This document shows positions 9,415-64,000 of a DNA stretch of 64,000 bases, one piece after another. The stretch is from Euglena gracilis (lineage: Eukaryota): the NCBI GenBank assembly GCA_039621445.1, contig CP154954.1, positions 12,270,716 through 12,334,715 on the forward strand, written 5' to 3'. The notes under the pieces were generated by a model. It searched no databases, was not told the origin of the DNA, and was given only the letters and a program-made list of their open reading frames with translations. Positions within the stretch are counted from its first letter, which is position 1. Each line of letters starts with the position of its first letter. Position numbers and translations under genes: made by a program.

Positions 9415-10094
<680 letters not shown>

Positions 10095-41506: not shown

Positions 41507-42540
41507 CTTATGCGGCGGGATTCGCACTGAAGGGTTCTTTAGAATGGGCGATTTGCGCAAATTCACATTTTTTTACGAAATCCCTGGGACCCTGTTCCCT
41601 GATACACGGAAAAACAATTTATGAACTGTTGCAACGCCCTATTAGAGGATCAGCTCCAGGTGGTGTGGTGTGCATGTTGCTTGCCGAGTGACGCGAAGAG
41701 GGCTCTCGGATGTCAAACAGGGGGGAAGCACACACCAGCTGTTACGAAAACTGGTGCTGACGTGCTGCCTGAACTGGCTGCGGTACTACAGCCACCCGTC
41801 AGGACACACGGAGCGATATTGCATCACATACTACATACTGTGATGGCCAGCCGTCGCACAACTGATGTGTTTGTGCGCGCATTTGCATTGTGCACGAAAT
41901 TTTTGTTTGTGGGTGCATTTGCGTGCACACAACGCAAAATGCTGAAGTTAAAATGGCATGTCCTTGCTCACTGAAGCGCCCCCAAACAAACTTTGTTTGT
42001 GGGCGCAATATGCGCAGCAACATCTTGGGGAAACTTCTATGCGGATGGTTTGTGCATGGGCACAAACAACATGATCATGTTAAAGAAGACTGACGATTAC
42101 CACAACCTGTGGAGGTTTGTGATATGCGTGTTGGTGCGCACATTTGTGCACACAAACACAGTTTGTTTGTGGGTGAAAATGCGCGGACAAACATTTAATC
42201 ATTCACTTGTTTGTGTGGCGCTATATCTCGTACGAACACACATCAGTTGTGCGACACCATCTCCTCGTCTGTGACGGCTGGCGAACGCACTTCCGCACGC
42301 CAACCGTTGATTTGCACCGTCAATGTGTGGTGATGAAATTTGTGTGCAATGTTCACTTGAACACGCCATGTGATGGGCGAACGTTTGCCTGCCTTCTTTG
42401 TGCACGTTTTAGACAGCCGTTCCCCGGCCCGCACGGCCAGTAGTTTTCATGTCATCTGCTTGGCTGATGAGATTAATGAATTGATGACGTGCAACGACCA
42501 GGGACTGTTCGACGCTTTCTCTGCAACAACATTACGTCAC
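41507..42540 (+). mobile_element. Truncated relative of the CTTAGGCGGCC-TIR family
   Basis: CTTATGCGGCGGGATTCGCACTGAAG (41507-41532) interrupts repeat R and is followed by TTTGCGCA/GTGCGCAC-type motifs. No right TIR found; right boundary approximate. Confidence 0.55.
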
Positions 42541-42599
42541 AAAAATTCAAACAAAGGAAGCAGAGTCCTGCTTTCCCAACTGCGCCAATATTAAAAACA

Positions 42600-45149: not shown

Positions 45150-46306
45150 CTTAGGCGGCCGAATTCGCACTTAAGAGTTTTTTCGTTGAAATGGGCGCAT
45201 TTGCGCAAATGCACCATTTTTTGTAACCCCTGGGACCCTGTACCCTGTCCGCCAAAAAAAAAATTTGTGATCGCGAACTCGTTAGGGCTGGGCAATTCGA
45301 ACCCCTTCGAATACAAAGTCCTAACTTGGCTTCGCGACGTGACGTACGCGCGAACATTTGTACCTCTCCCTCTCCGCAGCTGCTTGTCTGCACACTGTCC
45401 GCTGGACACCCACCGACACCCACTTCCACCCCACACCACCCCGCGGCACGCAACTGGCCAGACCTGGCAGCATACGGTTTTTGACTTTTGAGGATCCAAA
45501 TGTGGTCGGTGGATGCTGAACGTTTGGCAGGCGATGAAACCAGACACTCTTGATGAATTTCAGAAATATTGAAAGGGTGTGTTGGGTGCCGGAGTTTGTG
45601 AATCACAATGAAATTGAGTGTGTTTGGAGGAGGGTGTGACACCCCTGTTTTGGACAAGGGCGAAGAAACGCCCGGCGAATTGGAACCTTCTAATTGGTGG
45701 ACGGAATAAATTTTGTTTGTGGCGCACTGCACACTTGCACAAATGCGCGCATCAAACAATTATTATTAATGTGATTGATTGTGTTGCTGAGTTGGCGGTT
45801 GTGTCGCACCAGATTTGTGTCAGAAATGGAAAGTGATCTCGTTTTATTTGCGCAATTGCGCGCACAATTCTTGATTTTTGTTGTTTAACGACCCAGAGGG
45901 CGTTGTGCTACCAGTCAATTGACCTGAACGTTGTCATTCACCTGTTGTGTCAGTGGGGGGGGTGATTTGTGTGGCTGGTGGCGACGCTGTGACGCAGGGG
46001 AAGCTACGCTGCTCACCACTTGAGGCTCTATGGTGGTGTATGGCCGGTGTCCCATGTCTGGAGTTGACGTACATGGGGGATGGCCAGGCAGGGTACATCG
46101 ATGAATTGATGTGTGCTTTTTTGTCTGTTGACTTGCGCAATTGCGCGCATCAAACGTTTCCAAATAAAAAGAAATGGCACACAGAATTGTGGGAGGTGTG
46201 GTGTGTAACGTGTCTGTGTTAGACGCGGGACCAATGGGGGTGTGGAGTTAACGGATTTGCGGTGCTGGTGAAAAGGCGGCGTGCCGGCAGACCTGGGGAG
46301 GACTGA

Positions 46307-49050
46307 ATGGAGTCCTCGCAGGCCAGCAGCACCCACTCCCGCCGCCGTGGCTACGAGGGCTACAGCGAGGAGGCCGCCCTGGCCGCGGAGGCGGGGAAGG
46401 TGCTGGGCCAGCTGGTGAAGGCCCACTTCGCCACCAGCTACGAGGAGATCGTGGCGGCGGTGGTGCAGCGCGGCCACCCGCTGCAGACCCTGGTGGTGCA
46501 GGTGGCCCACACCAGGGTGCCGCTGCGGACCGAGGGCGGCGCGGCGCTGCTGGAGGAGCTGGCCCGGGAGCCGCGGCGGCCGCGGATCGAGCTGCTGCTG
46601 AAGGACGCCTGGGCCGTGTACCGGGCGCTACGGCAGCACGCCTGCCCGCGGTCGGCGCAGCGGGTCGTGGCGTAGCTGCGTCCTGTGGTTCGACAACTTC
46701 TGGAAGCGGGCCATGACGTCGAACCCCAGGATGGTGATCCGCACGCACGACTGCTGCGTGATGGCCATGATGCGGACGGCGGTGGACGCCATCCCGGAGT
46801 ACCCGGGGTACCCGTCGCTGGAGCAGCTGCTGGGCCGCATCCACCGGGTGTCCGCACGGCTGGTGCAGAGCGACCTGCCGGCGTTCCTGGAGCTGGTCTC
46901 CGAGATCAGCGCACGCCCGCTGGAGGCGCACGAGCTGCGCGTATCGCTGGACGTGCCCCGAACATCAGAGTGACTGAGTGTTTAACTTTTGGACAGGCTG
47001 TGCAGGTCAATGGGATGAGTGAACAGAACAGCTACGTATGTTGGTATTAACGTTTTGGTGGGGTATGGGTGCCTGTCATCTAAAGGGAACTGAATTACAC
47101 TGACATGCGCGCAAATGCGCCCACATTACTCTGCATTACGTGTTTGAATTAGATTCCAGTCTTCGGTGGTACCGCAGTGTTTCGTGCAAGGATCTCTTTT
47201 GAACTATTGGTTCCGTTTGATTTGCGCATTTGCGCGCAGGTGCACGTTCAAATCAGTCAAGATGCCAGACCTTACCCTGTATCTGATTAACGTTTGTAAA
47301 CTGTTTTGATGCGCGCATTTGCGCAAATGCGCACATCAAACCAGTTTACCCTTTGTTTTGTGTCCGTTGTGCGACGATGAAGTTGGTGTCACACAGAAGG
47401 CGGTGACTCTGATGCCGTTGGGAGAACGCCCAGTGCCCGGTGTGGCGCCCCTTCATGCTGACGGACGACCGGATCTCCTCCCAGGTGGGGATGCTGAAGG
47501 TCCTCCGCTTCCTGAAGGGTGACGTGCTGTCCCGCGTGAAGGCCCCGCTGCCCCTGCTGGTGGACATCAACCTGTGGTACCGCCAGCTGAAGGTGGTGTA
47601 CGGGCGGGAGTGCCAGCGGTGGGATGCGAGCGAGGCGCTGCGGCAGCTGCCCCCGCTGTACGGCGTGTGGCACGCGTACAAGCAGGTGCTGTACGTGCTG
47701 TACCGCCGCCTGCTGCCGCTGTTCCTGTTCCTCCAGTGGGGCACCATGGCGCCGGGGGAGCAGTGGTCCACCAAGCCGAAGGTGCGGGCGCTGGAGATGT
47801 GGGTCGGCGCCATGCTGATGGTGCCGGCGGACCGCCGCGCCCGCCTGCAACGGCTGATCCAGACCCTGCGACGGCGGCGGGACACCGTGGTGCCGGAGGT
47901 GGAGCGGCGCTGGCAGCTGACGCAGCAGGCCCAGCGACGGAAGGAGGAGGCGGAGCGGCAGACCGCCAGGCAGGTGCGGCACGCAGTGGCCAGCGCCAAG
48001 ATGCAGCGGGCGTGGCAGTCGGGGAGCCGGGAGATGGAGTGCATCCGGGTGCTGGAGGATTGTCGGCGGAAGGAGGCCCAGGCGGTGGAGGCCCTGGAGA
48101 GGCTGGAGCGGGACCTGGCGGTGGCGCAGGCGCTGGAGGACCTGCTGCTGGTGTGGGCGCCGGCCTGCTTCGCGCTGGGGTGGCAGGTGCGGGAGTGCCA
48201 CTGGGAGGCGGCGGCCGCAGACCGGTGGACAGGCGCGGAAGGTGCTGTGCAACGCCCTGACGATGCTGCTCCACCTGGAGGCGCCGACACCGGGACACCG
48301 GCCGCGCGGCCACTCGGACTACGTGCGGACGCTGGCGTGCGCGCTGCTGATGTGGTACCGGTGGCACGAGCAGCTGCCCGCCTGCTGCTTCTCGGAGGAG
48401 GTGAACGAGGCCACCCTCAGCAGGCTGGGCGGCTCGATGCAGCACCACCCGGAGGCGGTGGAGCACGTGATGGACCTGTACCTCCTGGTGAGGCAGGGGC
48501 ACCACGGTGCCCGGGAGCTGCGAGCGGGTGGGGTGGACCGGCGGTGGATGGCGGACTGCCTGTGCAACCTGGACTACCTGCTGGACGGCAATGAGCTGCG
48601 GCCGCCGCTGGACGCCCCTGACCGCCTGGTCCACCAGATGGTGACGTTCGCGTCGGTGAGGGGGCAGCGCCCGGAGAGACGGCGGCAGCCCGAGGAGCTG
48701 GACGCGGACGAGTTGAGGAGTCCGGGGACCAGTCGGTGGTCCTGCGGTGGCCGGACGGCTGGGTGGGTCCGCCATCCCTGCTGGAGCCCGACGCTGTACC
48801 GAAGGGCGAGACGGCCCTGAAGGACGTGCTGCAGTACGCGCTGCGGACGCTCCTGAAGGACCACGTGCCCTCTGCCGACGCCGCGACGGAGCTGGACCGG
48901 CTGTGCTACGACGCGCAGGCTGGCAGCAGTCGCCGGTCGCAGGCGGAGTTGGACCTGTGCCAGGTCCACTGGGACAGTATGCTGGGTCGCCGCCGTCCAC
49001 GCCAGGAGAGGGCTCCTGGGGAGGCAGCAGCCAGACTCGCGGTTGGTCAG
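46307..49050 (+). pseudogene. Frameshifted Academ/DUF6589-like transposase (copy 2)
   Basis: WFDNF (D 46692), VDINL (D 47563), GVWH (H 47671), DYVR (48317) and SEEVNE (48392-48409). Intervening sequence at ~46963-47416. Deletion near 46665 relative to copy 1, and frameshifts near 48190-48240 and 48720. Confidence 0.6.
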
Positions 49051-50463
49051 GCAATTTGGGGGGCTCTATTCACTATCACCGTTGTCCTGCTAACATTCTT
49101 TCCTCAGGAATACGGAAGTGTTACTTAGCATTTGCGCATTTGCGCGCATCAAACGTAAAAAAAAGTGTGCACGTGTGTGGTGATGCTGTCAATACGGTTG
49201 TATCTTACGAAACAGTTTACACTTTTTATTTGCGTAATTGCGCGCATCAAAAGTGTGAACTGCTTCACATTGATCCTAAGTGACATGCGCAATAGGCCTT
49301 TTACGTGTACTGTGTCTGACAAAGAGTTCCTTCAGTCCCCTCTGAAAATAGTGGCCCATTAGTCCAGGCGTTTGCACACCTGTACGTGCTCCATATTTGT
49401 TTCGGGAAGTCTCTGTGTTCTGAAAGCAGGTGGGAAGGTACCGAATGTTTGTAGCTCCGTAGGATTGAGAGTACGAACATTTTTGAGGACGGGGGGGTCA
49501 CACCCCCCTCCCAGAAGCCACAGATTGCGTTTTGTGGGCGCAATTGCGCGCATCAAAAGTGTATTTTAAAAAATTAATGTTGTGGTGCACCGCAAATCTG
49601 CCGTTGTCCGTGGCTGCCGAGTCCTCGTCATAGGGGTCCCTGCCGGAGCGACCGACTCGACGGTCGCGATTCGAATCGCTGGCGGGCGACGAGTCACCTC
49701 CGCGGGGGGGGGGGGGGGTACCGGTGGACCCTGCAGGGCGCGGGGCGGCCACCAGCAGTCGGGACACGATGGAGCCGAGGGCGACTCGTGTGTACCCCTT
49801 CGAGGGGTCCGACTGAGCGGATTCACTAATGAGGCGACGGTTTAGTAACTTTTGATACAAGCCATACCACACTTTATTTTATGGATCATTCCATGCGCCA
49901 GAACCAGGTGCATGTTCGCAAAAAGAAAAAAGTTGAAAACTCCCCTCCAGACACCTTCCAGGCCTACGGATGTCCAACGGTAAACCGCCAGTGCGTTAAC
50001 TGTTTCGCGACCCGAATGCGTGACGTGTCACCCCCGGTTTGTGTTGGGCAGTTTTTGACACAGATACGCCATGAAAGATTACAAAAACGTAGCATATCCA
50101 TACCCCCCCCCTTGTTACGGACCAGAATTTTGTACGTTCCGTGATAACATTTCACACTTTTTCCATTTTTTGCCTGAAAATGCCCAAGTCGGATGATTTT
50201 TTGTCACAATTTGGGCGGATTGCCGTCCCCGGGCAGGCGGAGCCCGGGACCGAGGCGGCGGAGGCTGGAGCGGAGCCCGCCCCGGCCGAGGCCGCTGCAG
50301 CGCAGGAGCCGAAGCCCGCCGCCAAGCCGGGGCGGATCCGGCCCCGCAGTACCGCCCGGAACCTCCCCATCGCAGAGGTGTACAAGGAGGAGGTGAAGCA
50401 GTGGGTGCTGTCGACGGGGACGAAACTGCCGCTGGACGTGCTGCACGTGGACCTACAACCAGT

Positions 50464-51740
50464 GCCAGACGGTAGACTGGGGGGGGGGGGTCCTGGGTGG
50501 TCGGCCGACTAGTCGGCCGACCACCCAACTGGTCGGCCGACTAGGCCTGGTCGGCAGCTAGTCGGCGAGACGGGGGAGGGGGGGGGGGGGGGGTAGTGGG
50601 TGGTCGGCCGACTAGTCGGCCGACCACCCACTCTAATGTAGTTACGGGCCAGTCTCGCCGACTTTTAAGCCCCCCCCCTGAGAAATTTTTTTGTCCAAAT
50701 CACCTCAACGCCAGTCAAAACCCACCCAAATGGCTCCAGAACCCCCCAATCGGGGGTGGTGAATATGCAAAAAAACTGGGGCAAAATGTCCATTTTGGGC
50801 CACTTTTGGCAAAAGAACACCTCTCCCCGTTGTATATAAGTTCTAAGTCAAAATAAGTCATTTGACACAAAAAGGACTTGTAGCCCTCCAAGTTATATTG
50901 CCAACATAGAAGGGATTTTGTTATTTGAGGGGGGGGTGCGGGGGGGGTGCGGGGGGCGGAGCCCCCCCCCCCCGCCTATGCCAAAGTGAGCCACAAAAAC
51001 GACTTAACCCCGGAGTATGTTGCCAACATAGAAGGGATTTTGTTATTGGAGGGGGGGGGGGGGGGGCGGAGCCCCCCCCCCGCCTATGCCAAAGTGAGCC
51101 ACAAAAACGACTTAACCCCGGAGTACGTTGCCAACAGAGAAGGGCTTTTGTTATTTGAGGGGGGGCGGGCGGGGGGCGGAGCCCCCCCGCCTATGCCAAA
51201 GTGAGCCACAAAACGACTTAGCCCCCGAGTATGATGCCAACACAGAAGGGATTTTGTTATCTGAGGCTCGGATGGGGGTGGAGGAGGGAGTTTTCAGCCT
51301 GTCGTGATGCAGAATGCTTGCATTTCTAAAGGATTTTCATGTAATCCCTGTTTCGTCATTGGTTTTTTACCCCTCCGGACCCCATCAAGGGCCCACCGAG
51401 CCCCCACCGACCAAAGATTTCCATCTGAGGGTGTTCCTGTTGGTGTAAGGCCCTTATTTGGACACATCCGGACCATTTCCGGGTGGTTTGGACCCGCCAC
51501 AGACCATTTTTATGACCACCGACTAGCCACCGACTAGTTTGCATACAATTTTCTTCATAAAAAGTCGGCGAGACTGGCCCGTAACTACATTAGAGTGGGT
51601 GGTCGGCTGACTAATCCGCCAACCACCCACTACCCCCCCCCCCCCCGTCTCGCCGACTAGCTGCCGACCAGGCCTAGTCGGCCGACTAGTCGGCCGACCA
51701 CCCAGGACCGCCCCCCCCCCCAGTCTACCGCCTAGAGCCA
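50464..51740. mobile_element. Foldback/Mutator-like non-autonomous element
   Basis: ~200-bp TIRs (50464-50666 vs 51559-51740) containing GTCGGCCGACTAGTCGGCCGAC palindromes. Direct repeat CTACAACCAG(T) of 10-11 bp at 50453-50463 and 51741-51751. Confidence 0.88.
50890..51262. repeat. ~106-122 bp tandem repeat (3.3 units) inside the foldback element
   Basis: GCCAACA.AGAAGGG..TTTGTTAT recurs at 50900, 51022, 51130 and 51236. Unit length varies through G/C runs. Confidence 0.9.
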
Positions 51741-52478
51741 CTACAACCAGTCCGAGGGGCAGACGCGGCCCCTGGACAACACGGAGGTGGAGCGGAAGCT
51801 GCGGCAGCTGCAGCTGAACCCCCCGCTGGAGATGGTGCGGGTCACCGTGTGGAAGAAGACGAGAAGAAGGTGTGTCTCTCAGTGTGACTGTGTCATATGT
51901 GGGTGTTTGCAGGTGTGGTGGTTTGTCTGGAATGAGTTTGTCTCTGGAAACTCTATTGGTGTGCAGGGTTCAGCATTGGAGCGCGTGCAATGCATTGGAA
52001 GTCAGATTTGATTTGCGCATTTGCGCGCACAAGCACACAGTACCTTTTTACTTGCGCATTTGCGCGCACGTACATGCACAATGTGTTTATTTGCGCATTT
52101 GCGCGGACATACACATGTCGTTTGTTTTATTTGCGCAATTGCGCGCGCATCCCTTCATTGTCCCCACAGAGGACCACTACGTGCTGATGTCGGGGCAGCA
52201 CATCACCTCGGCGCTGAAGCGCTGGGTGGAGGGCTTCAGGTCCCAGAAGTTGAACCCCTTAGTTGCACTAAGGCTTCTTGTCTGTTTATGGCCGGCGCTA
52301 ACTTCGCTTCTGGCCCAGTTTGCTGCGTGGTGAGTGGCCAGGGACCCCTTACACCAGTCCTCTTTTGTTGCTCCCCCTGGCCGGGTGAGTAACTCTGGTG
52401 TAATTCCAGCGCTGTATCCCAGAAGTTGAACCCCCCGAAGGGTTCAGCCCTGCATTTGTTTGTGTGTTTTCTATTTTG

Positions 52479-52567
52479 CCCCTCTCGTGCAGCCCCTCTC
52501 GTGCAGCCCCACTCGTGCAGCCCCTCTCGTGCAGCCCCTCTCGTGCAGCCCCTCTCGTGCAGCCCCT
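52479..52567. repeat. Minisatellite (CCCCTCTCGTGCAG)n in an intron
   Basis: About six near-perfect units. Confidence 0.9.
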
Positions 52568-54518
52568 CCTGTGTCTGAAATACAAAGGTTCAAGTGCAGG
52601 GCTGTTGCCAGGGCAAGTACGTCCTCGCCACCATCCTCCACCCCATGACCCCGGTGCACCTGCGGCGGGCCGCCGGCGGAGACGCGCAGGCCATCCAGTC
52701 GGCGGTGAAGGAGCTGTCCATCCCCCAGTTCGCCAACCTCCTGGTGAAGGGGAAGGACATCTCCACGGTGCCGACGGTGCGGCTGGCGGCGGCCTACCGG
52801 CAGGCCGGCTGGGACCGGTCGGTCCCCCAGGTGTGAGCCCACTGCCAGTCTGCCTGTGCATTGAATGACAGTGTACTGTTTTATTTGCACAATTGCGCGC
52901 ATCAAAAGTGGATACATGCATAATGCATTCCTCCTGCGATGCATGGATGAGGTGTGTGTGTCTTATGTCATTGCCTCAAGGCGAGGTCATCAAGATGTGG
53001 GGGCCGCTGCAGCGGCTGGTGGAGGAGACCCCCGAGGCGGTGGCGGGCCTCCTCAGCGTGGAGTCGGCGCTGGCGGCGAGGGGCCGCACGCTGCTGTCCT
53101 CCCACATGCGGTCCCTCCGGCGCCTGCTGACCCCCGAGGCGCGGGCCCAGGTGGCGGCGGCGCTGCAGAGCCCGGAGATCGGGCTGGCCCAGCTGGAGCA
53201 GGCGGTGACGGAGGCCACCCACGAGATGTGGGTGGCCTTCACGCGGAGGAGCGACAACCCCAACATCCACGGCCAGATCGGTGTGCCAGTGCTCTGGGGT
53301 CTGGGGTGCAACTGTGGTGTTGGATATGACAGCAGACCAGCACGCGCGCACGGTGGATTGCATGCTGTGCGGTAGTGTAACTGTAGTCTCCCTCACTCAC
53401 TGCCCCCATCACAGTGCACAACGCGACGGAGAGGAGCCGCTTCAAGCGGACGGTGCCCGTCGCCGCCCTGCAAGTGGCGCGGCTCGGGTCGTGGACCTGG
53501 AGCCCGGTGGAGCCGAGGCCCTGGCGGCGGTGCTGACCGCCCCCTTCTGGGTGGAGGCGCAGTTCGAGGAGCTGCGGGCCTCCTTCGCGCTGCTGGCGGT
53601 GGAGTCGGAGATCACGTCCAAGGAGGGCGGGGCCTTCCAGGAGGTGGTGGCGGCCAGGCCGGCCGGTGAGGAGAAAGGAGTGCGGTGCCTGGTCTACAAG
53701 GCCAGCGGAGAGGGGGTACCGGCGGAGGCGCTGGGGGCCGCAGTGGGCCTCGTCATCGTCGAGGTCACCCAAAACACCGGCTCAGGGTCCTGTTTAGTTG
53801 AATTCTTCCTTTTTAAAAAGTGTTCCTGTTTTATTTGCGCATTTGCGCGCTTCAAAAATAAAATAACGGTTCTGATTGACACCTTCAGGTGCACACAGAT
53901 CCTTCCGCTGTTTGATGTGTCACAAGTATTTTTTATGCGCGCATTTGCGCAAAAGTTATGTCGACTGTCGGGGGGCGTCCGACAGTCAAAAATGGCAGGG
54001 CGGAAGCTTTTGAAAACACGGAATTTTTCATTCCGCGCAGAACGCGCGTTCTATAGGAAAAGCCTAATTTGAGGTTCCAATTCAGCACAATTTGCTTCCG
54101 CAGACTTTTGTGGGTTTCTTTGTTGCATACAATTGAGAATTGAAGTCCTCAAGAATTATTTCATTGAAGAATTGTCATTTTTGAGAATTTCAAGTTCAAA
54201 GGTCAGGTCCCACCTTTCCTCATTCACGGTGGGTCATTGTTGCTTTTTGACCACCATTTCAGTGAACAAAACACCACCCTTACCCATTCTCAATCTTTTG
54301 CATGCCGGAAGAAAGGAGGAGTGAAATGGCCTCATGGGGATCAAAGTTTGGAGAAACATTTTCATTGGAGCGGAATTTTGATTTTGTACAAGATTTCCAC
54401 GAAAAAGCTAATTCGATCCTACGCACCCCCCTCTGGTCGGGGGGGTATACCAGTGGGCGAAACGGGGGGTGGCCTGAGCCCTCCACCACCCGGAAAAACA
54501 CTGGGCCCTGGCCAGGGA

Positions 54519-55502
54519 ATGGCAGCCCCAGGGGTGGGTGACGGGCAGGAATCAGCCGGCCAGGGGGCTGGGGTTTTCGGTCCGACACCCGCAGGGGGGG
54601 CGCCCGGGGTAAACATGGTACGCAGAGGAGTTTTTGCCAACCCAGTTGACAAAAAAATTTTCAGCCCAGAAAATACGGACAATTTTGATGGCACAGCCAG
54701 CAGTAATCTTGCTGAAGATTTAAACATGATTACAGAGACAGGTTCTGCTGGTCATACCAACAGAATCTGTGGAAATGTTGGAAGTTGCAGCCCTCGGCTA
54801 AACATGATTAACAGAGGCAGCTTCAACTCTGTTGGTGAAGGATTTTTGGAATCAGTGAACCTGAATTCTTCTGCATCTGTGGAAATCAGTGAACTTTTTT
54901 TGGAATCAGTGAACCTGAATTCTTCTGCATCTGTGGAAATAAGGAATTCTCAATCACAAATTGGCTCTGATGCGTGTTCAGAAATTTCAAGCTCAGACTT
55001 TTCAGGTGGGAACCCAGAAAATGTGTTTGGAATTAACATGATAACGGCCAGTCCCCAGGAATCACAGGGGGGGGATGAAAATCAGTTGGTACAATGGACA
55101 GGTTCACCCCCCCAGTATCAAAGCGACAGTGAAATTGACAGTGACAGGGGGTCGGGACCCAGCCAGTTTGAAGAAACAGAACAACTTTTGGTGGCTGCAG
55201 GTTGGATACCCCCCAGGTTTCAGATTTTTGGTCCAAATCAGTTTCCAAATTTTGGAGCCGAAATACCCCAGATTGAGGGGGTAACTCCAATTTTATTGTT
55301 GGAAGACAGGGGGACAGCCAGCCACAACGAAATAACTGTCGATGGACAGACATTTTTTTCGGAATCGACCAGAATGTATTCTGAATCAAAATTTTCTGGG
55401 GTGCAATCTGTAAATCTGGGTTGTGGTGCATCATCATCGGGGGTGTTTAATGTGGCAACATCAAAAACCCAGGTGGAGGAGGAAAGAACCCCAGCCACCT
55501 GA
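54519..55502 (+). CDS. Ser/Gly/Glu-rich ORF upstream of gag (ORF0, or frameshifted Gag N-terminus)
   Basis: Open frame 54237-55502, likely ATG at 54519. Low-complexity acidic sequence with an internal duplication (FLESVNLNSSASVEI x2). Composition like the gag that follows. Confidence 0.5.
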   Translation: MAAPGVGDGQESAGQGAGVFGPTPAGGAPGVNMVRRGVFANPVDKKIFSPENTDNFDGTASSNLAEDLNMITETGSAGHTNRICGNVGSCSPRLNMINRGSFNSVGEGFLESVNLNSSASVEISELFLESVNLNSSASVEIRNSQSQIGSDACSEISSSDFSGGNPENVFGINMITASPQESQGGDENQLVQWTGSPPQYQSDSEIDSDRGSGPSQFEETEQLLVAAGWIPPRFQIFGPNQFPNFGAEIPQIEGVTPILLLEDRGTASHNEITVDGQTFFSESTRMYSESKFSGVQSVNLGCGASSSGVFNVATSKTQVEEERTPAT

Positions 55503-55525
55503 TTTAGGAGTTCAGGTGAGGGGGG

Positions 55526-57892
55526 TTGACATTTCAGATTGGGACGCATGGGATAATTGGGCCCAGGGGGGATTGCCAATTAGCTGAGCTGAACCGAAGT
55601 TTAACTCACTGGGAAAGTATTATACCCCCCCAGGTTGTTGTGGAAAACCGGCTGGAAAATTTTGAGCGAGAATTGGGTGCAAAAAATTCTCGAGCACAGG
55701 CTGAACTTTTACATTTAATTCAGGAAAATGTGGAACGGCGAAATGCTGAAATTTGCAGCCAGTTTGAACAGCAAAAACAGAAAACTCAGGAGGAAATTCA
55801 GCAGTCAGTCAGCCATTTTATTTCACAGTGCCAGCAAGGGGGGAATGCTGTGGAAAATATTGCAAACTGCCACAAGCAACTTTTGTCAATCGAAGTTGAA
55901 AGACAGGTTGAAGGAAAATCCCAGATTTTTGAGAAATCTGTGAAGAGCTTTTTGGATGGGCAGTTGAGCGAAATTTTGAAAAGGGAAAAGGAAATTGAAG
56001 CCAGATTTTCAGGTATTTTTGACCAAGTTGGGATTTGTTCTCGGGCTGCGGGAGAAAACAAATTGGAGTTGCAAAAAGAGATTTCTGCGCTTCAGAATGC
56101 AAACCGTGAGCTGTGCTCTGGGGTAAACCAACGATTCACTGAAATTGCTGCTGGGCTGAAAACTGTTGGGGAGGACTCTAAGACAAATTTTGGAACACTA
56201 GTAAGTGATATGCAGCAGCGATTTCAGACAGTGAATCAGGAGAGCAAAGCTCTGGGGGACAGATTGGCTGGGATCGAGAAATTTCTGGGCAGCCAGGAGG
56301 TGCCTTGGGACAAAGTTGTTGAAATGATGGGGAAAACAGAAGAAACGATACAAATTCAGGTTCGGAGGGAAATGGCAGCTCAGGTCAGAAAAATGATGGA
56401 AATCATGATGACCCAAATGATGGAGGAAAAAATGAGACAAGTGCAAAAAGAAGAACATTTTGACAAGTGGCGAAATGACATGGAAAATTGTATGAAACAG
56501 CAGTTTTGTGCGATTTTGGGCAAAATTCAAACAGATTTTTCGAAGGAAAAAAGCCATGGGGAGGTTGTCCAAAATCTGTGCAACAATTTTGAGGCACGGT
56601 TGAAGGCAATTGAAAGGAGGGTGCAACAAGTTTTGACTGAAACGGTTCAGCCCAAGGCATCTACGGTGACACAGCACAAGCCAGTTTTTAAGCCGAATTC
56701 TGGTTTTGTTGGAATTAAGGGAGTGAAGCCGGTTCAGCCAATTGAAATCTGGGATCTTAATCTGGGATTGGAAGGGGGCCCAGATTTAGGGGATGGATCA
56801 TTAATGGTGGGCCAGGTGAGTATCAATGCCATAGGGGGGGCATCTGAACGGTCACCAATGATGACTGTGGCGTCTGCAGCTAAACAACACATTTTGCGAA
56901 ATGTTGTTGTCCCGAAATTTTCAGGTCATGCAGGTGATTGGCCAAACTTCAAGGATGAGTGGGGGAGATTCATCCGAAAATTCAATCAAGTTTCAGAAGC
57001 TGATAAATTGGGCCTCCTAGAACTTTGTTTGGATGATTTGGGGAAAAAACAGCTGAATTTGCATTTGGATGAAATGGGGGAGACACTCACTTTCAATGAA
57101 GTGTGGGCCAAGTTGGATGCCTGGCATTCGAGAAATGAAGAGTTTGGGGCCAGAAAAAACTTTCGGGATCTTACATTATGCCATCAAGGGAGGGTTACAA
57201 GTCGTGATCGGGAAAATTTCAAGGTGGACTTCAAGTTGTGTCGACAGAAAATCAAGGATGCTAGTGAGGGGGAGGTGAAAAGATTACTCATCGAAAAAAT
57301 GCCTCCTTTTATTGTGCATTGGATTACTGATGAGGAAGAACGGATCAAAACCAGCCAACCAACCGTTCGAATGAACTATCCACAGCCAACCTCCACAGCC
57401 ATTATGGAAAATTTTGTGATGATTTTCGCTGGGAAGAAACCCACAAGGGTCACAAAATTGAGTGAGACGGAATTCGAAATTGTGTTGCCTGATGTGCAAA
57501 GTTGTGAAACACTCAAAAGTTACAATGGGAAAGAATTTAATGATTCCAATGTTTTGGTTCGGGTTCGAGAAAATGAACCAAATTTGAGTGTTGAAGACAT
57601 TTTCCGTCTCGTGACTTCAAAATTGGCACTCAGAGATCGGCAAGACTTAATGCTAAACCCCAATCACAGCCAAACCTCATACAGACGTTCTCGATCGGTG
57701 GGGGCGGAGAACAAAGGGGGAAAATCCAACAGTCGGGAGGGTTCCCCCTCAAAGAAACGTTCTTTTTCTGGAAAGCAGGTGGCATCTCCAACATCTTCTA
57801 CACCCAAGTCCACAGGTTCTGACTTGCCCAATGCTTCGAATGGTCCTGTTCCCATTTCCAGAAACTCGTTGCGTTCTCCATTTATGTGGTGA
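55526..57892 (+). CDS. gag: Gag-like polyprotein (coiled-coil, capsid-like motif, RRM-like segment)
   Basis: 788-aa open frame with a long Q/E/K heptad-like region. VPKFSGHAGDWPNFKDEW at 56909 resembles the PxFxG...WxxF retrotransposon Gag motif. Lies upstream of pol. No ATG at the listed start. Confidence 0.72.
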   Translation: MTFQIGTHGIIGPRGDCQLAELNRSLTHWESIIPPQVVVENRLENFERELGAKNSRAQAELLHLIQENVERRNAEICSQFEQQKQKTQEEIQQSVSHFISQCQQGGNAVENIANCHKQLLSIEVERQVEGKSQIFEKSVKSFLDGQLSEILKREKEIEARFSGIFDQVGICSRAAGENKLELQKEISALQNANRELCSGVNQRFTEIAAGLKTVGEDSKTNFGTLVSDMQQRFQTVNQESKALGDRLAGIEKFLGSQEVPWDKVVEMMGKTEETIQIQVRREMAAQVRKMMEIMMTQMMEEKMRQVQKEEHFDKWRNDMENCMKQQFCAILGKIQTDFSKEKSHGEVVQNLCNNFEARLKAIERRVQQVLTETVQPKASTVTQHKPVFKPNSGFVGIKGVKPVQPIEIWDLNLGLEGGPDLGDGSLMVGQVSINAIGGASERSPMMTVASAAKQHILRNVVVPKFSGHAGDWPNFKDEWGRFIRKFNQVSEADKLGLLELCLDDLGKKQLNLHLDEMGETLTFNEVWAKLDAWHSRNEEFGARKNFRDLTLCHQGRVTSRDRENFKVDFKLCRQKIKDASEGEVKRLLIEKMPPFIVHWITDEEERIKTSQPTVRMNYPQPTSTAIMENFVMIFAGKKPTRVTKLSETEFEIVLPDVQSCETLKSYNGKEFNDSNVLVRVRENEPNLSVEDIFRLVTSKLALRDRQDLMLNPNHSQTSYRRSRSVGAENKGGKSNSREGSPSKKRSFSGKQVASPTSSTPKSTGSDLPNASNGPVPISRNSLRSPFMW

Positions 57893-58331
57893 GGGGTTTA
57901 GTCTGTTCATCTTGCATTTGGGAGGGGAGATAGGATGGTTTGTTGTGTTGTCCTTTTTCCCATGTCCACTGAAAGTCATGCCCAAATCTTACCCACAAAA
58001 TGCAGAACTTCCAAAATCTGTGCCAAATACCAATGGTGGAGTTTGGGTTCAAGCACCACCAAAATCGTCTCCTTGGCCAACTTGGCAACCCCAAAATCAA
58101 AACCAAAACTCTTGGAAAGGCCAAAGTTTCAAGGGTGCTCAAAATTATCAAGGCCAAGGACGATATGGGGGAAGGGGGTACAGCCAATCGAATGAAAATT
58201 GGAATCAACAATCTTCCCAAAAAGGAAAAGGCAAAGGCAAAGGCCAAGGGAAAGATTCTTCCAAAGGCAACGGTTGGAAGGGAGGGGGGTACAATTCAAA
58301 CCGAAATGTTACACCCCCAGTCCATCTTTAG
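57831..58331 (+). CDS. Gag C-terminal nucleocapsid-like segment (frameshifted from main gag)
   Basis: Q/N/G/K/W-rich basic low-complexity peptide (QGRYGGRGY, KGKGKGKGQGK). Ends in TAG 58329-58331, in frame with pol. Confidence 0.55.
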   Translation: MLRMVLFPFPETRCVLHLCGEGFSLFILHLGGEIGWFVVLSFFPCPLKVMPKSYPQNAELPKSVPNTNGGVWVQAPPKSSPWPTWQPQNQNQNSWKGQSFKGAQNYQGQGRYGGRGYSQSNENWNQQSSQKGKGKGKGQGKDSSKGNGWKGGGYNSNRNVTPPVHL

Positions 58332-60575
58332 GGACGCCGGGGTCATGTTTTTGAGGGGTTTACATCCTCGGGCATTAAAAACCCCCGCAATATTTTGCAT
58401 AACCCAACCACATCTCCATGTGGAGAATGTTACCATGTTGGAGAATGTGTATATCTATCTTCCAGTCCCTCTATCTCAGGTTCAAAGTCAACCAATCAAG
58501 AGTTTGCAATGCCGAAGACAGGCAATGGTGCAACTGAAGGCAATTCAATGAATTCATCATCAACAATTGACTCAAGAAGGCAAGTGGCCTCGAGCCAATG
58601 GCAGCCCGTGTCGAGGAAGGGCAAGCCGGGCAAACCGTGGACTCGACCCAAACCGTGGACCAGGTGTGCAAGCCAGGAGAGTGCACGGCCCAGTTTCAAC
58701 AATTATTATGGTTGTTTGAGTGGAAGAGGATCCATCAAAGGTGTGGGAAGCAGGAGAATTCCCAAGGCGTTGGATTTGTTTTCGGGAAAAGGATCTGTGG
58801 GGAAGTGTTTGGAGGAAAACGGATACCAGGTGGTATCTTTGGATGTCAACCCAAAATTTCACCCAACCCACGTAACAGACATTTTGGAGTGGGATTATCG
58901 CAAATACCCCCAGGGATACTTTGAAGTTATTGCGGCCGGTGTGCCATGCACGGAGTATAGCCTTGCAAAAACGATAGGGGGTAGGGACATGCAAACGGCA
59001 GATCGCCTTGTCGATAAAAACATGGAGATCGTGGAATATTTTCAACCCAAATTGTGGTGGATTGAAAATCCCCGTACGGGATATTTACCCAAACGGCAAT
59101 GTGTTCGAAATTTGAATTTCATTGATGTTGATTATTGCCAATTTTCTGATTGGGGATATCAAAAACCAACCCGTATTTGGGGGAGTGAGAATCTCTTAAG
59201 TTTGAAGGACAAAATTTGTGATGGAAAAACCTGCCCCAACATGGTGTTGAAGGAGGGGGGCAGGTGGGCACACAAGGAGCAATTGGGTGGGAGGCATATG
59301 CATACGAGCACACATCAAAAATGGAGAATGCCTCAAAATTTGATTGAATATCTTCTTTCGGCCCTTGATTTTAAGGAGGAGAAATTTTCCTTCAAAAGGG
59401 AGGACTATGCCGTGAGAAACTCCTTTGTGAAATTGATTGAGGAGAAATTTCAAAGGAGAGCCGAAATGGATTGTTTTGCCTCAACCAAAAATTCTCAATG
59501 TGCTTCTTTTTTGACGAAGGAGGAAAATGCCTTGAGCGTTGATTGGGGGAAGGGGGGCACGGTGTGGTTGAATCCCCCATGGTCGTTATGGCATAAGGTG
59601 GCAAAAAAGTTGCAAAAAACCCCGTGTGATGCAATTTGCATTGTTCCCGATTGGCAAAGGGGATGGGTGAGAGAACTTGTGCGAAAGGCGACACAAAAAT
59701 TGTATTTTCAGCCTGGAACAAAGCTTTTCGAAGTGGATGGGAAACCCATGGGAGGTGTGAAGTGGGGAGTTTGGGCCTTGTTGATAGAGGGTGATAAGCC
59801 CCCCACTAGCACTAACACGCCTAAGGAACCAAAGGTTGTACGTTTGAAGTCGCGTATGGTGAAAAATTCACCCACAGGGGTAAGCAAATTTTCCAAGGAT
59901 AGGCAACTTTTGATTCGCACAAAGGTAATTTTGGTCAATGGGGAGGAACGGGATATGGATATTTTGGTGGATACGGGGGCGGAAGCAAACCTCATAAGGC
60001 AAGGATTTGTAAGCGATCACCTAATGCACTCGGCTGAAAATCCCCTTAAGTTTGAAACGGCTAACGGCCAAGTTTTAAGAGGGGGGACAAGGTGCACTAA
60101 GGTGAGAATGAAGTTGCTTGGGGAGGAGAATAATGGGACACCACCCGAATGTTTTGAGTATGAAGTGGAATTTTACGAAGCAAACATAAAAGTGGATGCC
60201 ATTTTGTCATTCCCATGGCTTGCCCAAGCAAAACTTGGAGTTTTTCCACATCACCGAGCTTTGGTTTTGGAAACCCCCGAGCTCACATTTTTGTTTGGTG
60301 TGCGTGATTTCAGAAAACGGCGACACTCAAACACTTCAAAAAGTTTGCCCCAAGAGGGGGGCACGGCCCATTTGCACAAATTTGGTTTCCAACTACCTTT
60401 GAGTGGGTTTGATCAAAGAAGTCGCTTTTTGGATGACCGAACCCTGAATTTTTTGCACAAAAATTTGAACGTGTCCGAAGCAAACCCCCAACCCATCCGA
60501 CGGATGATAATTGCAAGGTGGGGGGGGGGGATGCAAATAATGAAGAGGAGGAAGATAAGGATGAAGGCAAGTTAA
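58332..60575 (+). CDS. pol: Pol N-terminal part: C5-cytosine MTase + N6-adenine-type MTase + aspartic protease
   Basis: C5 MTase motifs: I LDLFSGKG (58770-58793), IV GVPC (C 58947), VI IENP (59061-59072), VIII-like YQKPTRIW. Amino-MTase motifs: MDCFASTKN (59466), WLNPPW (NPPW 59571-59582), IVPDW. Protease: ILVDTGAE (D 59970). All in one uninterrupted frame. Confidence 0.9.
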   Translation, partial: GRRGHVFEGFTSSGIKNPRNILHNPTTSPCGECYHVGECVYLSSSPSISGSKSTNQEFAMPKTGNGATEGNSMNSSSTIDSRRQVASSQWQPVSRKGKPGKPWTRPKPWTRCASQESARPSFNNYYGCLSGRGSIKGVGSRRIPKALDLFSGKGSVGKCLEENGYQVVSLDVNPKFHPTHVTDILEWDYRKYPQGYFEVIAAGVPCTEYSLAKTIGGRDMQTADRLVDKNMEIVEYFQPKLWWIENPRTGYLPKRQCVRNLNFIDVDYCQFSDWGYQKPTRIWGSENLLSLKDKICDGKTCPNMVLKEGGRWAHKEQLGGRHMHTSTHQKWRMPQNLIEYLLSALDFKEEKFSFKREDYAVRNSFVKLIEEKFQRRAEMDCFASTKNSQCASFLTKEENALSVDWGKGGTVWLNPPWSLWHKVAKKLQKTPCDAICIVPDWQRGWVRELVRKATQKLYFQPGTKLFEVDGKPMGGVKWGVWALLIEGDKPPTSTNTPKEPKVVRLKSRMVKNSPTGVSKFSKDRQLLIRTKVILVNGEERDMDILVDTGAEANLIRQGFVSDHLMHSAENPLKFETANGQVLRGGTRCTKVRMKLLGEENNGTPPECFEYEVEFYEANIKVDAILSFPWLAQAKLGVFPHHRALVLETPELTFLFGVRDFRKRRHSNTSKSLPQEGGTAHLHKFGFQLPLSGFDQRSRFLDDRTLNFLHKNLNVSEANPQPIRRMIIARWGGGMQIMKRRKIRMKAS

Positions 60576-63462
60576 GGCTATTAAGGGAGGAAATTCAACA
60601 AAAATATGAAGGAACGGTTTTTAGGTCAACGGTATACCCGGACCCACCCATAAGGGGACCCTATGGGTATGCTTTTATACCTTTGAAGGAAGGAGCAACA
60701 CCAACTCGACAAAAACCATTCTTCATGCACGGGGAACGAAAAGAAGCTTTGGAAAAAATCACTCAAGATTGGATCAATATGAAATTCATCGAGCCAGCCA
60801 CAACAAAAAATTCAGAATGGCTCTCACAAACTTTCCCCGTGCCCAAAAAGTCTCCCGATTTTCCTTGGAGGGGGGTTGTTGACATGAGGGGACCCAATAG
60901 CCAAACCCGTAGGTGCAACTACCCTCTTCCGAAAATCGAAGATATATCCTGGTGAAGCATGGTGGCAACCAAATGTTCTCCATTTTGGACTTAAAACAAG
61001 CATTCCACCAACAACCGCTTCACCCGGATAGCCGGCCAATAACTTGCTCCTTCACACCAAAGGGTCTCTACCAATGGAGGGTCAATGTAATGGGGTTAAC
61101 TAATGCCTCACAACAATTTCAACAAATGATGGATGAGAGGCTAGCACCCGTAAGGGACATAGCAACCCCATACATAGATGATATTTTGGTGGGGACAACC
61201 GTTGGGGAGGGGGAAGACCTCCTAGAGGCGCACAAACGGGATTTGTGCCGAGTTTTGGATTTGTTGGCCAAAGAATTTTTTGTGGTGGACCCAAAAAAGG
61301 CAAAATTGTTCATCAAGGAAGTGGAATTTTGTGGCCAAATTTTGGGTCATGGTGCCCGATGGCCAGCACCGGGCAAACTTCGTGCCATTGAAAAATGGGA
61401 GGTTCCCACAACCATTACCGCATTAAGAGCTTTCCTTGGTTTTACCAACTACTACAACACATACATCCATATGTATGCTCAAATTGCCGCACCGTTGCAA
61501 GACAAATTGAAGGTGCCTAGGGATGTTGGTAAAAAGGGAAGCAAGAAAAGAGTTGAATTTGGGGAGGGGGATCTCCAAGCGTTTGAGGAATTGAAGAAGC
61601 GTTTGTGTTCGGGTTTAATCCTTCAACGTGTAGACCCCGATAAACCCTTCGTATTAAGGGTAGATGCAAGTGGGTACGCCGTGGGGGCTACACTAGAACA
61701 ACTTAAGGAAGGAAAGGGTAAGCCCACACCCCAAGACGTGATGGATAAGAAAACGGTGCCTATTGCCTTCATGTCCCGAAAACTTACCGTGGGGCAAAGG
61801 AAATGGACCCCCCGGGAGTTGGAGACTTATGCCATAATTTTGGCGCTCCAAAAATGGGAAAGTTGGATTGGTCTTCAACCTGTTTTGGTGTTGACCGACC
61901 ACCAAAGTTTGGAGGCATGGTCAAAAGAGGTGCTCGATACCCCCAGTGGTCCGGTGGGTAGGAGGGCACGATGGCACCAGATTTTTTCAAAATATGATTT
62001 GACGGTGGGGTACATACCGGGTAAAGAAAACACAATTGCCGACATTTTGAGTCGGTGGGCTTACCCGGCCTCACAAGCATTAAGGGACGTAAGCAAACAC
62101 GGTTCAGCCGAGGATAAGGAAGAAATGGAGGAACTCATAAGAGAGGAAAGGGAAGACGAAAGAAATTGTTTGTGGATTGGAGTGAAAAATCAGCCCAACA
62201 ACCGTAACACGTGGATTAGAGGGGTGATAACCCGTAGCGGGAAATTGGTGGAACCAAAAGATTCCATGGATAGCATGCAAGAGAGGGGAACCGAGAGTGT
62301 AGTAAATCCGGGAGGCATAGACACCACCGTTGACACACACTCACAAGGGCCCAGGTCAAAGGGGAAAAAGGACAAAAAGTTGAGAGTCACTTTTTGGGAT
62401 GGAGTGGACCCCGCGGGTAATTTGGTGACCGACCCAAAACTTTCATCCAATGAGTTACCGAGGGGGGGAACATGCACGGGAGAAGGTGAGGCCACACCAA
62501 CTCCAAGTGTAACCCCCAAGGGAACAAATTCGGTTTGGGAGCAAGATTGGGTGGTTGCATACACTTTGTGTCCCACGTGGAAAAAGATTTGGCAAGCAAC
62601 ACAAGAAAATGGTGAGTGGCCTAAGGGGGTGAAAGTCCACAAAAACCAAATGTTTCGAGAGGAGAAGTTGTGCATTCCACTAAGTTTTCAAGAAATGATC
62701 ATCCTTGAAAACCACAAATTTCTTGGACACGTTGGTCCGGAAAAGGTGTGGAGGCACGTCAATTTGAGGTATGCATGGGCTGATGAAAAGAAGGCGAAAT
62801 TTTTCACCGACAGTTGTAGCAAAAATTGCACAACATGTCAAGCGAGCTCGAGGGGGGAGACATTGAAAGGACCCATTGACTCAACACCCATACCACCCGC
62901 ACCCATGGTAAGTGTGGCTATTGATCTTTTCAAAATGCCGAAGGTGTTGTACGAGGGGGGGGAGTACAACACAATGGCTGTTTGCGTGGACCGACATTCC
63001 GGTTGGATTGTAGCCATACCATGTTTTGATAAAGGATTAACGGGTGCAAAATTGGCCAAGGAAATGCTTAAAGCCCAATGGAAACCCTTTGGAGTCCCGT
63101 CAATAATTTCAAGTGACCAAGGGAGCCATTTTGTCAACACATGGTGGCAAACCATGTGTTCGCTCATGGGAATTCGGCAAGCATTTTCCCAAGCTTACCA
63201 CCACCAAGCAAATGGGAGGGTGGAGAGAGCCGGACAACAAATAATGGAAATCCTCCGAAAGTTGTTTGTGGAGGAAAAAATGAATTGGGTGGAAGCACTT
63301 CCCCAAGTTTTGGATCGCATTCATGACACAAAGGGGGAGAGTGGTTTTAGTCCTTATGAGATTTTATTCGGAAGGGATAGACCCATTGGGGGGATACCCA
63401 TTGGGGGGATACCCTATGAACCATCAAAGGAGTGTGTAGACACTCAAAGTTTCGCCGAATAA
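60518..63462 (+). pseudogene. pol: Pol RT - RNase H - integrase core (frameshifted)
   Basis: RT: WRGVVDMR, LDLKQAFHQ, MGLTNA, YIDD (61171-61182). RNase H: VDASG (D 61663), RELE, TDHQSL, NTIADILSR. Integrase: H..H..CTTC zinc finger (62713-62838), IDLF, SDQGSHF, ANGRVER. Frameshifts at G11 (60520-60530) and GATATATC (60941). Confidence 0.93.
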
Positions 63463-64000
63463 GGGAGGTGGATGAGAAAGTTGCTAAGGTTCTCAACCAC
63501 GCACATTGGGTTCAAGCGAGTTGGAGGAGGGAGTTGGTACCCTTAAAATTGGGAACCCAAGTGTGGTATAGGAGACCCGAAGGATCCGGAGAAAAATTGG
63601 ATTCCAGATGGATTGGACCTGGGATTATTAAAGCCCGGGAGGGGGAGAGGAGTTACATTGTTGAAATTAAACCCGGGATGGAAATGAAGGTTCATCGTAG
63701 TTTCCTGAAGGAATACAAAGAGCCTGAAGTTTTTGGTGAGGGGGTGTCTTTGTTCTTTTTCAAGAGGACCGAAAAAGAAGAGGAAGCAATGCCTGATGAG
63801 TGGGAGGTGGAGAAAATTCTGAACCACCGAAAGAAGGGGGGAACCAGGGAATTCCTCACGAAATGGGTTGGTTACAACGAGGGGGAGGAACCTGGGAGCC
63901 GGTGGGGAATTTCATACACCGATTTAGTGAGGAGTTGGTGAGGTATTGCACGAAGAAAAACCCAGGGGTCGATCTGATGTCCGAATTGAAAAAATCTTTG
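63432..64000 (+). pseudogene. Integrase C-terminus (GPY/F-like) and chromodomain; runs off window
   Basis: KLDSRWIGPG..SYIVE..VHRSFLKEY, then EWEVEKILNHRKKGGTREFLTKWVGY. Restoring one base at ~63890 continues as TWEPVGNF, and the frame stays open to the window end. Confidence 0.85.

Follow-up and report, generated by a model that had tools for sequence, protein, structure and literature searches.

Background

Retrotransposons that carry DNA methyltransferases have been described before. De Mendoza et al. (2018; PMC5890265) reported C5-cytosine DNA methyltransferases (DNMTs) in Symbiodinium LINEs (long interspersed nuclear elements) and DIRS elements and in charophyte elements, noted that retrotransposon DNMTs are able to methylate CG de novo, and remarked on Dam-like domains in DIRS elements; self-methylation of complementary DNA (cDNA) has been proposed for such retrotransposons (PMC5890265). 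A preprint of May 2026 (Fernandez-Moreno et al., bioRxiv 10.64898/2026.05.21.726589) distinguishes five lineages of long terminal repeat (LTR) elements with Dam-type domains (DAM-LTRs), and gives the name EpiLTRs to the elements with DAM, DNMT and chromodomain found in two of them, from Cymbomonas tetramitiformis and Euglena gracilis. Here we analyzed a 64-kb stretch of DNA (contig CP154954.1, positions 12,270,716 to 12,334,715; referred to below as the window and numbered from its own first letter), of which positions 53959-64000 are occupied by a retroelement whose Pol begins with a C5 and a Dam-like methyltransferase domain in tandem.

According to the same preprint (bioRxiv 10.64898/2026.05.21.726589), the Cymbomonas EpiLTR has its DNMT at the 3' end of pol, the Euglena EpiLTR is "structurally distinct", EpiLTR DNMTs are monophyletic and sister to DNMT4, their DAMs fall in a eukaryotic DAM-TE clade, and N6-methyladenine (6mA) is enriched on DAM-LTRs of ichthyosporeans and Euglena. 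The charophyte DNMT3 elements are called Gypsy-DNMT3 there. A literature search on the word EpiLTR returned no other relevant paper.

We put at about 80% the probability that window positions 53959-64000 are a defective copy, with 5' LTR, gag and nearly the whole of pol, of a chromovirus-like Ty3/gypsy LTR retrotransposon that has a high copy number, is of the EpiLTR kind and has the C5 and Dam-like domains at the head of Pol. As judged by Pfam, DAM, C5 DNMT and chromodomain stand together in this one LTR element, the combination by which the preprint defines EpiLTRs. The likeness to EpiLTRs extends to the Ty3-like LTR structure, the presence of both enzyme types in Pol, the Asn-Pro-Pro triplet and a CpG-methylated host, which is reported for Euglena and is apparent here from CpG depletion. 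In the Cymbomonas EpiLTR the DNMT lies 3' in pol, whereas here both enzymes lie 5', upstream of the protease. For Euglena the preprint text states no domain order, so the C5-Dam-protease order may or may not be in print; if the host is E. gracilis, the window element probably belongs to the described Euglena EpiLTR family. A sequence-only reading of the window knew of no described Ty3/gypsy element with both enzyme classes in tandem upstream of the protease; because the preprint describes EpiLTRs, that claim of novelty is out of date. Its background statements, on C5 methyltransferases captured by retrotransposons and on Dam-like domains in DIRS elements, are right (PMC5890265).

Other systems are more distant. 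The elements of de Mendoza et al. (SymbioLINE-Dnmt, SymbioDIRS-Dnmt3 and charophyte DNMT3; PMC5890265) likewise hold a C5 enzyme with its catalytic residues in the coding region, but they carry a single methyltransferase class (LINE, DIRS or DNMT3-bearing), whereas the window element has a compact C5 domain of ~200 amino acids (aa) together with a Dam-like domain. DIRS elements share PF05869 within Pol and differ in having a tyrosine recombinase and in placing Dam downstream of reverse transcriptase (RT) and RNase H (RH); in the window Dam lies upstream of the protease (PR), the order is PR-RT-RH-integrase (IN), and the integrase is of the DDE type with an H2C2 domain. The tyrosine recombinase family PF00589 had no Pfam match here and rve and Integrase_H2C2 matched instead, which ruled out a DIRS identity. 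Chromoviruses have the same PR-RT-RH-IN-SH3-chromodomain order and the TG..CA LTR ends that are predicted for the window; canonical ones differ in having no methyltransferase, and the window gag is unusually long and without a family match.

Tandem methyltransferase domains at the start of Pol

Open reading frames (ORFs) were called from stop to stop with the standard code. An open frame of 747 codons on the forward strand holds both enzymes and the protease:

58332..60575, forward strand: first open part of pol, with 143 N-terminal residues, C5 methyltransferase, Dam-like methyltransferase and protease (ORF, Pfam)
58761..59357, forward strand: C5-cytosine DNA methyltransferase domain, ~200 aa (Pfam, Foldseek, PHROG, motifs)
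59367..59771, forward strand: Dam-like (PF05869) amino-methyltransferase domain (Pfam, PHROG, motifs)
59880..60299, forward strand: aspartic protease, DTGA at 59970-59981 (Pfam below cut-off, relatives, motif)

PF00145 (DNA_methylase) matched residues 175-248 of this frame (E 2.5e-5, 24.3 bits, cut-off 22) and PF05869 (Dam) residues 364-423 (E 2.8e-13, 50.3 bits, cut-off 28.1), while two aspartic protease families matched at residues 535-593, both under their cut-offs. The C5 motifs FSGKG (58779-58793), VPCTEYS (58941-58961), ENPR (59064-59075) and QKPTR (59160-59174) are followed by DCFAS (59469-59483) and NPPW (59571-59582) of the Dam-like domain. The sequence-only reading had placed in one frame a C5 enzyme (~58761-59370), an amino-methyltransferase (~59400-59790) with almost no linker between them, and then the protease. 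Frame and order held up, the coordinates fit the motif positions, and the two Pfam families that it expected were matched above their cut-offs and in that order. The linker comes to ~8 residues in the structure model (model residues 220-227, with low confidence).

The model was built for residues 130-480 from 33 aligned sequences and gave a predicted local distance difference test score (pLDDT) of 83.2 and a predicted template modelling score (pTM) of 0.68, with pLDDT >90 in the C5 part. Foldseek searches of the PDB returned 191 matches at E <= 1e-3, and the top ones listed were all C5 DNA methyltransferases (DNMT3B/3A/3C, DNMT1, M.HhaI, M.HaeIII and DIM2; E 7e-8 to 1e-6). Motifs I, IV, VI and VIII are present in the C5 domain, for which the model predicts a class I methyltransferase fold, and motifs IV-VI align with DNMT1; no tool picked out motifs IX and X. 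The domain is compact: a C-x4-C...H segment, kept in 113/115 full-length relatives, replaces the large target-recognition domain. PHROG matches were to phrog_757/363 for the C5 domain (3e-12) and to phrog_111 for the Dam-like domain (1.1e-12).

Conservation among relatives was high for both sets of motifs. PC..[YF]S was kept in 110 and EN[PV] in 99 of 115 full C5 domains, and D-x-F-A in 25 and NPP[WYF] in 23 of 28 Dam domains. In an alignment of 13 Dam-like sequences (29-44% identity), D35, F37, W67, P70 and P71 were invariant and N69 nearly so. We take the NPP motif to indicate an enzyme of N6-adenine rather than N4-cytosine type. The Dam-like domain is truncated; its part of the model consists of five to six short strands and three helices, one of them N-terminal, and resembles the description of transposon DAMs in bioRxiv 10.64898/2026.05.21.726589. 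These data show the C5 fold, the catalytic motifs and the order of the domains.

Relatives with intact single-frame polyproteins

A word-index search found 77 homologues of 410-1308 aa at E <= 1e-3 among 1867 candidates (best 6e-160), a result far beyond chance, and a further 28 of 1309-2218 aa. Both enzymes were present in 15 of these 28 long polyproteins, and both plus the chromodomain region in 10, all in one ORF; the other 13 mostly had C5 only. Among the 15, the orders were C5-Dam-PR (6), PR-Dam-C5 (5), C5-PR-Dam (2), Dam-PR-C5 (1) and Dam-C5-PR (1). The C5-Dam-PR order of the window thus recurs in 6/28 long metagenome proteins. Four metagenome proteins run C5-Dam-PR-RT-RH-IN-chromodomain in one uninterrupted ORF, and the three of them checked for motifs were fully intact. 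Three single ORFs of 1763-1911 aa (P0219, P0220 and P0221) have the exact window order and every motif intact.

Identity between the window and P0219-P0221 was 60-63% for C5, 62-65% for Dam, 51-59% for PR, 64-68% for the chromodomain region, 70-73% for IN, 77-83% for RT and 83-89% for RH. Based on these per-domain identities, the methyltransferases appear to be at least as constrained as the protease.

The family is spread widely over environmental metagenomes. Searched exhaustively by HMMER, the C5 domain matched 2933 cluster representatives at E <= 1e-3, of which 235 reached E <= 1e-30; of 218 proteins collected, both domains were found in 31 and C5 only in 126, many of them fragments. Metagenome loci were ~50% identical to the window in protein, and the habitats of those fetched are presumably freshwater, bog and marine. 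In some relatives (P0244, P0025, P0049, P0155 and P0246) C5 is not placed ahead of RT but follows RNase H and precedes integrase, or comes after integrase. The C5 module has ranged over all of Pol, and the window element is part of a large environmental radiation of chromovirus-like elements with the methyltransferases in at least five orders.

An RT-RH tree was built from 38 rows, comprising the window and all proteins with complete C5, RT and RH matches. Two clades, each with support 100, separated the elements with C5 upstream of PR (22 rows) from those with C5 just upstream of RT (16 rows). C5 was kept in 38/38 rows though its position in Pol shifted, and in the window's clade Dam presence switched at least 2-3 times. 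In the RT phylogeny, also proposed by the sequence-only reading, the window fell in a clade of five rows (support 100), all C5-Dam-PR-RT. These five rows group together in the C5 tree as well (support 99), so C5 and RT were inherited together in the window's lineage.

Abundance of the family

The stretch or part of it was present in 20/24 listed runs, and 14/24 contained >= half of its sampled words; the runs that contain it come from 18 studies. Contig pieces aligning to 53000-64000 at >= 90% likeness numbered 6062 in run X1, 782 in X7, 652 in X12 and 59 in X20, and 2280 of the 6062 X1 pieces did so at >= 99%; contig depth can neither rank parts of the element nor give a copy number. The pieces were distributed over the identity classes 99+, 95-99 and 90-95. 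The family is thus a diverged multi-copy one, and at least one genome contains it in abundance.

The junction of C5 and Dam (59304-59572) is spanned by contigs of X1 (records 3-5), and those of X7 and X12 extend over the C5 domain as far as 59381. The contigs from X20, an RNA library from leaf litter, were 95-98% alike and cover parts of C5, PR, RH and IN, with several bins without cover. Single X1 contigs skip 57771-59074 and 54445-61146, a hint that rare deletion derivatives may exist.

Layout of the element

Outside the frame described above, the element was divided as follows:

53959..54615, forward strand: putative 5' LTR with TG start and CA end (contig ends of other runs, sequence)
54616..54630, forward strand: primer-binding-site-like TGG... 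stretch directly after the LTR (sequence)
54726..57892, forward strand: gag region, in frames 54726-55502 and 55520-57892 (ORFs, Pfam)
57860..57968, forward strand: 109-base extra segment between 9-base near-repeats (contig joints of other copies)
57994..58331, forward strand: Gly/Arg/Lys-rich gag tail in the pol frame, closed by one TAG at 58329-58331 (ORF reading)
60520..60530, forward strand: run of 11 G, first frame break, from PR to RT (comparison with relatives)
60581..61443, forward strand: reverse transcriptase, YIDD at 61171-61182, second frame break inside (Pfam)
61633..61995, forward strand: RNase H (RT_RNaseH 1.8e-23, aa 241-361 of ORF 60913-63462)
62674..63456, forward strand: integrase, with H2C2 zinc domain and DDE core, third frame break at its end (Pfam)
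63534..63946, forward strand: SH3-like domain and chromodomain, fourth frame break inside the chromodomain (Pfam, relatives)

Downstream of the protease, Pfam E-values were 6.5e-18 for RVT_1, 1.8e-23 for RT_RNaseH, 9e-13 for rve, 7.2e-5 for Integrase_H2C2 and 6.5e-6 for Chromo. The Chromo match (PF00385, 26.4 bits, cut-off 25.1) covers the first half of the domain, and the second half (TWEP..NF) is read in the next frame. The PR-RT-RNase H-IN order with a DDE integrase is that of Ty3/gypsy Pol, and a chromodomain at the integrase C-terminus, unbroken in P0219-P0221, is the chromovirus trait; this order and the chromodomain bear out the gypsy/chromovirus identity given by the sequence-only reading. 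Its series of RT, RNase H, integrase and chromodomain after the protease was likewise recovered by Pfam, but in this copy these domains are not in the same frame.

The start of the LTR was placed from the loose ends of other contigs, as the window holds only the 5' side, without an alignable LTR pair; it ends before the 3' LTR. Three contigs of run X7 (agreement 0.99) align only from 53959 onward; their bases immediately before that point form a purine-rich, polypurine-tract-like stretch, which is what a 3' LTR junction would show. GC content drops from ~0.61 to 0.45 near 53800-54000, at the left end of the element. The TGG... stretch at 54616-54630 may resemble the 3' end of an initiator-Met tRNA. 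Scans of the window gave zero tRNA genes and zero Rfam matches, and no further copies of the element were found inside the 64 kb.

Gag is unusually long (~1050 codons across two frames), with a coiled-coil-like N-terminal half and a capsid-like C-terminal half. No Pfam family matched gag above its cut-off; the C-terminal half matched the upstream ORF of a metagenome locus, L003 (22% identity, E 1.3e-8). Gag has no zinc knuckle, and a Gly/Arg/Lys-rich tail (57994-58328) stands in its place. The segment 57860-57968 is missing from contigs of runs X1, X7 and X12, in which 57859 is joined to 57994 with 25 letters between. It contains the stop that ends the gag frame and also offsets gag relative to pol. 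The segment could be an insertion, the other copies could have lost it through repeat slippage, or it could be an intron-like piece.

State of this copy

From 57994 the pol frame is open save for one TAG (58329-58331), which may be the natural gag/pol border or a mutation. A readthrough signal at this TAG found no support: the 92 bases from the stop gave a folding z of 0.15, and 112/200 shuffles folded as well. Four frame changes follow, at 60520-60530, at ~60940-60946 within RT, at ~63456 and at ~63885 within the chromodomain. In relatives, unlike the window copy, PR-RT-RH-IN-chromodomain is in a single frame. Other copies vary in length at 60520-60530 (all of the depth in X7 and X12, part of it in X1), at 60942-60944 (a share of copies) and at 63888, so that among the rows listed length variation was seen at 3/4 frame-break sites. 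Because the relatives are single-frame and other copies differ in length at the breaks, either the window copy is defective or some of the breaks are assembly indels. As it stands, the window copy is unable to make the full polyprotein. The catalytic motifs of PR, RT and IN are all legible, and therefore suggest that the copy is young.

Possible viral affinity of the C5 module

In IMG/VR, 275 C5 relatives were confirmed. Identity over the whole ~200-aa domain was 36-47% in the 24 best of 80 loci and down to 25% in the rest, and in 0/80 of these best loci was RT, PR, IN or Dam found beside the C5 gene. Among C5 relatives without RT, the nearest are thus short stand-alone genes of virus contigs. 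They resemble the window domain along its whole length and match the same PHROG families, but differ in being separate genes of about 200-290 aa. Among the neighbours of C5 are the gene for a double-jelly-roll capsid on L027 and those for D5-type primase-helicases on L025, on L033 and on metagenome locus L015; on the strength of these two hallmark genes, the contigs resemble small polinton-like DNA viruses of eukaryotes. On L015, a virus-like metagenome contig, a short C5 gene directly follows an N6/N4 (PF01555) methyltransferase gene (5835-7376); by this gene pair, pairing of amino- and C5-methyltransferases occurs outside retroelements too. Contigs of prokaryote genomes gave 8 pattern matches, of which 0 were confirmed as C5 relatives. 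The nearest ESM Atlas clusters were viral C5 methyltransferases of 210-290 aa, at a score of 0.87 that lies under the 0.9 line and serves as a lead only.

A FastTree phylogeny of C5 comprised 131 rows: 74 retroelement-linked, 34 from virus contigs, 8 metagenome rows without RT and 15 short proteins with C5 alone. It omitted C5-only proteins >260 aa, proteins without one full C5 match, 13/80 viral loci without a stop-free 150-residue match and, for size, 33 more viral rows. Rooted on 10 distant viral rows, the retroelement C5 clade contained zero viral rows (support 89). Since the retroelement label needs one change relative to the virus and no-RT rows, there may have been a single capture of C5 by retroelements, and the transfer may have gone in either direction.

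It is possible, rather than probable, that the window element is an EpiLTR of a third, so far unpublished configuration, in which the tandem enzymes are the first Pol domains, and one branch of a large, mostly uncultured chromovirus radiation that captured a C5 of the small-eukaryotic-DNA-virus type once, moved it to at least five Pol positions and repeatedly paired it with, or stripped it of, the Dam-like domain.

Proposed function and alternatives

Intact copies would translate both enzymes within Gag-Pol, at the head of Pol, and together with gag if the TAG is passed. They could then enter the particle with RT, perhaps to be freed by the protease, and would act on nascent cDNA or, once it has integrated, on the element itself. 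The mark written by C5 would be 5-methylcytosine (5mC), which would fit a host with pervasive CpG methylation. The Dam-like domain would write 6mA, which marks permissive chromatin in many protists, and so imitate such chromatin, a role for which the preprint (bioRxiv 10.64898/2026.05.21.726589) argues on the basis of the 6mA enriched on DAM-LTRs. The chromodomain would steer integration. We infer the packaging of both enzymes and the methylation of cDNA from domain content. CpG observed/expected was 0.54 in the element, with an excess of TpG and CpA, and 0.5-0.84 across the window, where GC is about 50% overall and 60-62% in GC-rich coding-like stretches. Together with the repeat load, this composition might fit E. 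gracilis (PMC11252322; bioRxiv 10.64898/2026.05.21.726589). In such a CpG-depleted genome the element may set its own epigenetic state, an ability that the window copy would no longer have.

Several observations weigh against this reading of the element. The window copy itself has four pol frame breaks, an upstream in-frame TAG and a broken gag. Pfam coverage is partial (PF00145 positions 41-112 of 324, PF05869 17-75 of 169). Compared by sequence with solved structures, the C5 part reached no better than E 0.56-0.82 (DNMT1 ~0.7) and the Dam part had zero matches, and a profile of alignment A4 gave weak matches to DNMT1 and generic methyltransferases. The predicted Dam fold is based on Pfam, PHROG and the two-domain model, in which pLDDT is about 73-88 there. 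A key motif is lost in 5/28 Dam and 5/115 C5 domains, and because P0006 and P0026 are among the Dam-motif losers (with P0044, P0024 and P0078), some lineages appear to let the Dam domain decay. According to the preprint (bioRxiv 10.64898/2026.05.21.726589), transposon DAMs in dam-deficient E. coli gave no rise in 6mA and Euglena LTR expression is low or undetectable. The X20 contigs from the RNA library may be DNA carry-over rather than transcripts.

The alternative that survives best, which we consider unlikely, concerns the Dam-like domain: it would act on another substrate (RNA:DNA hybrid, single-stranded cDNA or genomic RNA) or be a module binding S-adenosylmethionine (SAM) or nucleic acid, so that C5 would be the only usual DNA methyltransferase of the element. 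The preprint (bioRxiv 10.64898/2026.05.21.726589) offers evidence on both sides. Eukaryotic transposon DAMs are described there as short of two pieces of bacterial Dam, its first catalytic subdomain and a portion of its target-recognition region; they gave zero 6mA in E. coli, and the authors suggest a hybrid substrate. On the other side, DAM-LTR insertions are richer in 6mA than other LTRs in three species. In the window domain, Pfam profile positions 17-75 of 169 and no others were matched. Retention of D-x-F-A (25/28 domains) and NPP[WYF] (23/28), with N69, P70 and P71 invariant or nearly so in the 13 diverged sequences, argues against this alternative.

It is improbable that both domains are functionless passengers, captured once and now drifting in elements that spread by RT and IN alone. 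The broken state of the window copy, the loss of the Dam motif in the five proteins named above and at least 2-3 switches in Dam presence within the window's RT clade speak for such drift. Drift is opposed by one-ORF polyproteins in which both domains are open with catalytic motifs intact, at 60-65% identity to the window compared with 51-59% for the protease, by C5 in all 38 RT-tree rows despite its moves within Pol, and by C5 motifs kept in 99-113 of 115 domains.

Very improbable, and close to excluded, is an artefact of chimeric assembly or of a second element nested in a gypsy pol. In its favour, the preprint (bioRxiv 10.64898/2026.05.21.726589) cautions that Euglena DAM-LTRs may include nested insertions or artefacts of assembly, and indels occur in the window copy, one of them where G is repeated in a long run. 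Against it, C5, Dam and PR are read in a single open frame with a linker of 8 residues, their order recurs in 6/28 long proteins from independent metagenome contigs, X1 contigs span the C5-Dam junction and X7 and X12 contigs reach 59381 in C5, and the RT and C5 trees concur on the window's clade. The chimeric assembly that the sequence-only reading had named as a possible refutation is thus contradicted by contigs from independent runs.

If the methylating function proposed for the intact element is correct, elements with their own 5mC and 6mA writers and a histone-mark reader would invert the usual picture in which the host silences the transposon. The EpiLTR kind has only just been described, in two species. 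The present analysis adds that the family is a large environmental radiation whose Pol layout is very plastic, that natural relatives with a single intact ORF exist, and that the C5 module appears closest to short methyltransferases of small DNA viruses, which bears on the origin of retrotransposon methyltransferases. The intact relatives (P0219-P0221 and others) could serve as natural templates for studies of cDNA methylation, of target motifs and of the effect of the marks.

Other features of the window

Upstream of the element, a GC-rich coding-like stretch at 53000-53790 is represented by many high-depth contigs in DNA runs and seems to be multi-copy too, either a gene family or another repeat. 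The ~17-base motif TTTGCGCATTTGCGCGC and near-palindromic variants of it occur in at least eight places in 46121-53864 and at about 53930-53950, usually a little beyond the ends of GC-rich coding-like stretches; the motif may be a small repeat, or else a signal of the host, either intergenic or of the 3'-end type. The segment 53830-53953 is seemingly tandemly repeated in other copies. Long runs of G or C lie in 40219-43588 and 50479-51286, and tandem repeats of 108 bases and 14 bases at 50941-51260 and 52478-52568, respectively. On the reverse strand, an ORF at 9402-10292, in a stretch of 44% GC, weakly resembles a bromodomain, with E 0.0025 and a score of 18.2 bits that falls short of the 21.7 cut-off.

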